From NCBI RefSeq assembly GCF_000027125.1, contig NC_017626.1: 64,000 bases of DNA, one strand, 5' to 3'. This document shows, piece by piece, positions 38,468-39,556 of this stretch. The position numbers were made by a program, and so were the translations under genes. The DNA comes from Escherichia coli 042. Lineage in GTDB: Bacteria > Pseudomonadota > Gammaproteobacteria > Enterobacterales > Enterobacteriaceae. The first letter of the stretch is position 1; every line of letters begins with the position of its first letter. The notes under the pieces are model-generated. The model was not told the DNA's origin. It saw only the letters and a program-made list of their open reading frames with translations, and did no database searches.

Positions 38468-39556
38468 ATGTCACCGCAGAATAATCATCTGCAGCGTCCA
38501 CCTGCTGCTGTGTTATACGCCGATGAACTGGCAAAATTAAAACAAAATGATAACGCACCTTGCCCGCCCGGTTGGCAGTTAAGTTTGCCTGCGGCCCGTG
38601 CTTTTATCCTTGGCGACGAAGCGCAAAATATTAGCCGTAAAGTCGTGATCAGTCCCTCCGCTGTCGAACGCATGTTAGTCACTCTCGCTACCGGGCGCGG
38701 TTTGATGTTGGTGGGGGAACCTGGCACCGCAAAATCTCTCCTGTCTGAATTACTGGCAACCGCTATTAGCGGCGATGCCGGGTTAACCATCCAGGGCGGC
38801 GCATCTACCACTGAAGATCAAATCAAGTACGGCTGGAACTACGCTCTGCTTATCAACCATGGTCCGTCAACGGAAGCGCTGGTCCCTGCCCCGCTTTACC
38901 AGGGAATGCGCGACGGCAAAATCGTCCGTTTTGAAGAGATAACGCGTACACCGCTGGAAGTGCAAGACTGTCTGTTAGGTATGCTTTCTGACAGGGTGAT
39001 GACGGTGCCGGAACTCACTGGTGAAGCCAGTCAACTCTATGCGCGAGAAGGCTTTAATATTATTGCCACTGCCAATACCCGCGATCGCGGCGTCAATGAA
39101 ATGAGTGCTGCGCTAAAGCGTCGCTTCGATTTTGAAACTGTCTTTCCGATTATGGATTTCGCCTAGGAGCTGGAACTGGTCGCCAGTGCTTCTGCGCGTT
39201 TGTTGGCCCATAGCGGTATTCCGCATAAAGTGCCTGACGCGGTACTTGAGTTACTGGTACGCACCTTCCGCGATCTGCGTGCCAACGGCGAAAAGAAAAC
39301 GTCAATGGATACACTGACAGCGATTATGTCCACCGCTGAAGCCGTGAACGTGGCCCACGCTGTGGGCGTCCGCGCCTGGTTTTTAGCGAATCGCGCGGGG
39401 GAGCCAGCCGACCTGGTGGACTGTATTGCCGGAACCATCGTCAAAGATAACGAAGAAGATCGCGCACGTCTGCGCCGTTACTTCGAACAACGTGTCGCTA
39501 CACATAAAGAAGCTCACTGGCAGGCTTATTATCAAGCTCGCCACCGCCTGCCGTGA
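38468..39556 (+). pseudogene. yehL: MoxR-like AAA+ ATPase YehL, interrupted by an in-frame TAG at 39164-39166
   Basis: ATG 38468 with upstream AGGGA; Walker A GEPGTAKS; same reading frame continues after the TAG (..FPIMDFA*ELELVASASARLL..) to TGA at 39554-39556, giving 362 aa if read through. Confidence 0.7.

Follow-up and report, generated by a model that had tools for sequence, protein, structure and literature searches.

We analyzed a 64,000-nucleotide stretch of Escherichia coli 042 DNA (contig NC_017626.1; hereafter, the window) that contains the yeh cluster. Its genes are arranged in the order three WGR/DUF4132 genes, yehK, a 1.2-kb spacer, yehL, yehM, yehP, and yehQ. At the head of the cluster lie two intact WGR/DUF4132 genes encoding proteins of 1265 aa and 1253 aa (25706-29503 and 29516-33277, + strand), the counterparts of the yehF/yehH region, which is broken in K-12. 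These are followed by a third DUF4132 paralogue, yehI (33287..36918, + strand), which carries a 13-bp deletion near 33345 relative to K-12, and by yehK (36979-37284). On the far side of the spacer, yehL begins at 38468 and is interrupted by a premature stop codon, which is the subject of this report. The genes downstream of it are intact: yehM (39567..41846, + strand; DUF5682, 759 aa) starts 10 nt past the yehL TGA, behind a GAGGA ribosome-binding site of its own, yehP (41839..42975, + strand; VWA_CoxE/VWA_2, 378 aa) overlaps yehM by 8 nt, and yehQ (42972..44972, + strand; a SWIM zinc-finger protein of 666 aa) overlaps yehP by 4 nt.

The spacer between yehK and yehL (37284-38468) holds a tandem ZorO/ZorP-OrzO/OrzP type I toxin-antitoxin pair. 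Two OrzO-P sRNAs are found on the + strand at 37673-37746 and 38281-38356 (Rfam RF02083, 101 and 92 bits), and the - strand has two hydrophobic ORFs of 29 aa, identical to each other (MDTLTQKLTVLIAVLELLVALLRLIDLLK), at 37338-37427 and 37946-38035; each Zor/Orz copy comes with matching promoter-like and terminator-like sites. The Zor/Orz system has been described in O157:H7 (Fozo et al. 2010, PMC2887945), and K-12 lacks it.

The gene order WGR/DUF4132, AAA_5, DUF5682, VWA, SWIM is also present in Lysobacter capsici and on a Variovorax-type metagenome contig, so that AAA_5, DUF5682, VWA_CoxE, and SWIM genes follow one another in the same order in the window and in both of these places. The five genes form a conserved cassette for which the ATPase is presumably needed. 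According to the passage of PMC3893208 that cites the Snider and Houry classification, YehL is the type member of one of seven MoxR subfamilies, and both yehL and yehM are up-regulated in K-12 hns/stpA mutants (PMC3686432). Our literature search for yehL and its neighbours, DUF5682/DUF4132, and MoxR/SWIM/WGR/vWA combinations found no functional study of the cassette, and a search of PADLOC-DB v2.0.0 returned no family at E <= 0.01 for YehI, YehK, YehL (both halves), YehM, YehP, or YehQ.

A single-base amber codon interrupts yehL

The first-pass annotation of this DNA had described yehL as a frame split by an in-frame amber codon, and re-reading the frame gave exactly the coordinates that it had claimed. 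From an ATG at 38468 (+ strand), 232 sense codons lead to a TAG at 39164-39166, after which 129 further sense codons run to a TGA at 39554-39556; the premature TAG is thus codon 233 of yehL. The 5' part of the gene (38468..39166, + strand; 232 codons and the premature TAG) codes for the N-terminal region together with the AAA_5 alpha/beta core, and the untranslated 3' remnant (39167..39556, + strand; 129 codons and the TGA) corresponds to a conserved C-terminal region that is predicted to be helical.

Comparison with the nearest genomes identifies the ancestral codon. Across 38300-39700, the sole difference between the window and strain C4 (NZ_CP010121) is at 39164, where the window has T and C4 has C, and the ten best megablast matches among complete E. 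coli genomes are each one base off the window over the same interval. In strain A10 (NZ_CP028764), which also has C at this position, yehL is 99.9% identical to the window copy, with codon 233 (TAG) as the one internal stop in the latter, and yehK, yehM, yehP, yehQ, and yehR are all 100% identical. In the closest relatives, yehL is annotated as an intact gene of 362 aa (WP_001314874.1). As the nearest genomes have CAG and differ by a single base, the change is CAG (Gln233) to TAG, i.e., a C-to-T substitution at 39164, just as had been proposed from the window alone. The rest of the gene is collinear and identical between the window and the two CAG strains, and the 3' remnant (39167..39556) is still identical to intact alleles. 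The amber codon is a defined single-base lesion and no chance stop in a random ORF.

The comparison with C4 also has a feature of its own. From 32300 to 39709 (~7.4 kb), the window and C4 are identical except for the amber base, and from 39710 (39710-41300), inside yehM, they differ at many positions. A10 stays identical to the window through yehR, past the point at which C4 diverges. The sharp switch inside yehM looks like a recombination breakpoint.

The stop removes a conserved C-terminal region

The identification of the gene as yehL, encoding an AAA+ ATPase, holds: the protein is of the MoxR type, Pfam AAA_5 matches residues 79-220 (E = 2.6e-34), and the orthologue is annotated as yehL in RefSeq. 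In NCBIfam, the only matches were sub-threshold ones to GvpN, MadB, and cobaltochelatase. A database search found homologs ~75% identical to YehL from Escherichia to Lysobacter, Burkholderia, Variovorax, and Acidovorax; such identity across Enterobacteriaceae, Xanthomonadales, and Burkholderiales is unusually high for an accessory gene. We aligned YehL with 21 homologs (22 sequences in all, the homologs 74-99% identical), in which Walker A (GEPGTAKS, residues 83-90) and Walker B (VRFEE, 153-157) are invariant. Both lie upstream of the stop, as do ATAN (200-203) and KRRF (217-220), and the stop falls 12 residues past the AAA_5 core. The truncation at codon 233 takes away residues 233-362, of which 129 lie beyond the stop, and the product of the window gene is therefore short of full length.

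The homologs give no sign of a natural boundary at this position. All 21 are full length (359-392 aa) and none ends at codon 233, contrary to the possibility, raised in the first-pass annotation, that homologs might end here. Position 233 itself varies among them (Q, R, H, or S). The lost part contains invariant or near-invariant blocks, namely MSTAEAVNVAHAVGVRAW (287-304), DLV..I.GT.VKD (315-327), and the C-terminal ARHRLP (357-362), which are shared across Escherichia, Erwinia, Lysobacter, Burkholderia, Variovorax, and Acidovorax. From these conserved blocks and the full-length homologs, we conclude that homologs do not stop here and that the lost segment is under strong constraint.

An AF2 model of the repaired protein, built from the 22-sequence alignment and used solely for helical prediction, has residues 231-359 all-helical, which is what an extended AAA+ lid would show, in what is a poor model overall (mean pLDDT 53, core below 50). 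PDB sequence and profile searches returned only remote AAA_5 relatives (midasin, McrB, 2r44) and no YehL-type structure on which sensor 2 could be placed. The earlier description of the stop as lying after Walker A/B and before a C-terminal helical part agrees with the domain layout, with the helices taken from the low-confidence AF2 model.

The amber allele is shared by a small lineage

We compared the region 38300-39700 (a 1,401-bp query) by megablast with 5,426 complete E. coli genomes, of which 5,250 matched. The features under the matches are annotated as yehL (ATP-binding protein) and yehM (DUF5682 family protein), and each BLAST record has two match places because the Zor/Orz pair is duplicated. 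A 61-mer centred on the TAG had no exact match in the 3,819 complete RefSeq genomes that it reached, the other 1,431 of the 5,250 yehL-bearing complete genomes being outside its reach owing to flanking SNPs.

Carriers were found in broader collections. An exact-sequence look-up of the truncated product in a collection of 15 billion proteins placed the 232-aa YehL product on 57 contigs. A 269-aa version of it, with the start called at an upstream ATG, is on 6 contigs and has the accessions VED14937.1 and VED34878.1; the C-terminal remnant of 108 aa is on 85. The intact allele that differs at Q233 only is present on at least 1000 contigs. At the nucleotide level, we verified the TAG in seven loci (L003-L009): one from the NCBI assembly GCA_036599305.1, two from NCTC (LR134238.1 and LR134246.1), and four from assemblies of the SRA runs SRR6456175, ERR007651, SRR31383025, and SRR18207505. 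The codon is thus reproduced in independent sequence data. The nearest two of these loci, L003 and L004, are each 1 position off the window in about 16.7 kb. The amber codon is a real inherited allele common to a small E. coli lineage. The suggestion that it might be a strain-specific lesion was right, except that the lesion belongs to a lineage and is not private to one strain.

Origin and predicted consequences

We hold it very probable that a spontaneous C-to-T transition at 39164, in the ancestor of this small lineage, turned Gln233 (CAG) into an amber codon that was then inherited, which would make the window's yehL an ordinary nonsense pseudogene. Translation would end 12 residues after the AAA_5 core and yield a 232-residue fragment without the last 129 residues. 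Because AAA+ ATPases rely on the lid region both to sense nucleotide and to assemble into rings, this fragment is, judging from the domain layout, most probably inactive. Without its ATPase, the five-gene cassette, composed of the WGR/DUF4132 protein, YehL, YehM (DUF5682), YehP (VWA), and YehQ (SWIM), would then be disabled.

In addition, the roughly 400 nt left untranslated upstream of yehM might lower the expression of yehM, yehP, and yehQ, which appear to be translationally coupled. A polar effect on these three genes is possible, although the argument for it is weak. The untranslated ~400 nt has no marked C-over-G bias apart from a value of ~1.5 near 39467-39500, and the one terminator-like hairpin in it (39363-39378) is a mere consensus match. 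Neither the remnant nor the downstream genes have suffered further damage, so the amber event is recent.

In E. coli, pseudogenes made by a single nonsense mutation are commonplace in accessory operons that, like this one, are non-essential and silenced by H-NS, and the truncated product already has two deposited records (VED14937.1 and VED34878.1). As a marker, the TAG at codon 233 cleanly identifies one small lineage. Moreover, strains with TAG and with CAG that are otherwise identical over the 12-kb cluster (e.g., A10) form a natural near-isogenic pair for probing the function of the cassette.

Other lesions in the cluster and the question of selection

Among the 33 window genes that could be checked against A10, yehL alone has a point-nonsense lesion. 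The cluster is nevertheless damaged in several ways across strains. The 13-bp deletion in yehI shifts the frame after about codon 19, with a 1180-aa frame remaining open from a GTG at 33376; the identical yehI sequence is flagged as 'frameshifted' by PGAP in C4, 135, and A10, and, being common to these strains, the yehI frameshift predates the yehL amber mutation. In K-12, yehH is a pseudogene and yehQ is short. The protein databases also contain YehL variants cut short at 282, 305, and 326 aa, others that have lost 20 and 39 aa in frame, and a YehI-YehL fusion. In S. sonnei lineages 2 and 3, yehM, yehL, and zorO are deleted (PMC12795559), and ST131 sublineage L1a carries the resistance transposon TnMB1860 in the DUF4132 region (PMC9334617).

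Outside the cluster, the fimbrial usher gene yehB and the chaperone gene yehC (17659-20829, - strand) are 'frameshifted' in A10. In the window, they are uninterrupted ORFs of 831 aa and 224 aa, each one single-base gap from its A10 counterpart, a further case of lineage-specific decay, here in the relative A10 rather than in the window.

The amber allele fits the picture of a cluster that is H-NS-silenced, dispensable, usually kept, and decaying sporadically in E. coli and Shigella. An alternative to neutral decay is that selection favoured the nonsense allele because carrying the yeh cassette is costly or self-harmful for this lineage. Repeated independent lesions have struck different genes of the cluster in different lineages, and yet YehL is ~75% identical between E. 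coli and Betaproteobacteria; strong constraint when present combined with frequent loss is typical of accessory conflict systems. However, the great majority of E. coli have retained the gene (in 5,203 of the 5,426 complete genomes, at least 80% of the 1,401-bp query across yehL is matched), and none of the yeh proteins is hit by a PADLOC defence model. In K-12, the operon is silenced by H-NS, so the cost of the cassette is probably low and drift would suffice. The repeated lesions accord with dispensability and do not show a cost, and we regard adaptive loss as rather unlikely. We give little credence to the proposal that the amber allele was selected to switch off a costly or self-toxic conflict or chaperone cassette, or to tune it down via low-level Gln read-through; if selection of this kind were real, the independent lesions in E. 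coli and Shigella would be its footprint.

Could YehL still be made?

The reading of yehL as an inherited nonsense pseudogene takes the amber codon to be decoded as a stop and the remnant to be silent. Models in which the codon is read through or the gene works as two pieces are unlikely.

On the first of these, a suppressor tRNA of the lineage or context-dependent near-cognate decoding would read through the amber codon and supply useful amounts of full-length YehL. The 3' remnant is perfectly intact, as this model would have it, but any recent mutation would leave an intact remnant. Decoding by tRNA-Gln would restore the wild-type residue, and near-cognate read-through of UAG inserts mostly Gln; a trace of YehL with the wild-type sequence, made through Gln read-through, is possible. 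Against useful amounts stands the next base, which is G, UAG-G not being known as a leaky context, and strong amber suppressors are rare in natural isolates. The 64-kb window contains no tRNA gene. Moreover, the stop occurs in none of the aligned homologs, position 233 being Q, R, H, or S, and because it is not conserved, codon 233 is not a programmed recoding site. Overall, we consider functional read-through highly improbable. Programmed read-through or recoding, including with pyrrolysine, was rejected, as the stop is unconserved in homologs and absent from the 3,819 complete E. coli genomes.

The chance is very slight, in our estimate, that yehL functions as a split gene, the N-terminal ATPase core and the C-terminal lid being translated from separate starts and coming together again as an active enzyme. 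An AGGAG at 39165-39169, overlapping the stop, is followed 6 nt downstream by an in-frame CTG at 39176, and in-frame TTG (39200, 39203) and GTG (39230) codons lie further on, from which region gene callers predict ORFs of 108 or 118 aa. However, the AGGAG is ancestral, being part of CAGGAG, and was not made by the mutation, and the only codon that it could serve downstream is CTG, a very poor start codon. All 21 aligned homologs are continuous across codon 233. The TTG codons at 39200 and 39203 and the GTG at 39230 were rejected as restarts, since no Shine-Dalgarno sequence precedes any of them.

That the T is a sequencing or assembly error, the true base being C and yehL intact, is virtually ruled out, and with it the option of error left by the first-pass annotation: the 61-mer did find the TAG in none of the 3,819 complete RefSeq genomes, and two of the carriers are NCTC assemblies, one of which (L005) does not align base-for-base with the window, but the TAG recurs in the seven loci L003-L009, which come from different projects (one NCBI draft, two NCTC assemblies, and four assemblies of SRA runs), 57 contigs encode exactly the 232-aa product, and identical substitution errors do not recur across sequencing platforms.

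Comparison with known systems

An inherited nonsense pseudogene remains our preferred account of yehL in the window, and it can be set beside the known versions of this gene. K-12 yehL occupies the same locus and has the same AAA_5 core, the window copy being 96.5% identical to it in DNA, and the K-12 cluster likewise has the VWA gene yehP two genes downstream. From the intact protein WP_001314874.1, the window YehL differs at codon 233 only. Unlike the type member, the window gene stops at that codon and lacks the C-terminal 129 residues.

Compared with the other lesions of the yeh cluster (in K-12, in C4, 135, and A10, in S. sonnei, in ST131 L1a, and in the truncated YehL variants), that of the window is likewise sporadic and restricted to a lineage, with one component lost. 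Unlike them, it is a clean single-base amber codon in the ATPase gene, and it is found in none of the 3,819 complete RefSeq genomes tested.

Among characterized systems, the closest likeness is to the MoxR-VWA pairs RavA-ViaA, CbbQ-CbbO, NorQ-NorD, and CoxD-CoxE, in which an AAA_5/AAA_3-type ATPase is likewise encoded in the same operon as a VWA partner. YehP matches VWA_CoxE, and the matches of YehL to the NCBIfam families GvpN and MadB are far below the cut-offs. By analogy, the YehL cassette probably remodels or matures a protein complex. It differs from these MoxR-VWA pairs in that it adds DUF5682, SWIM, and giant WGR/DUF4132 proteins to the ATPase and its VWA partner.
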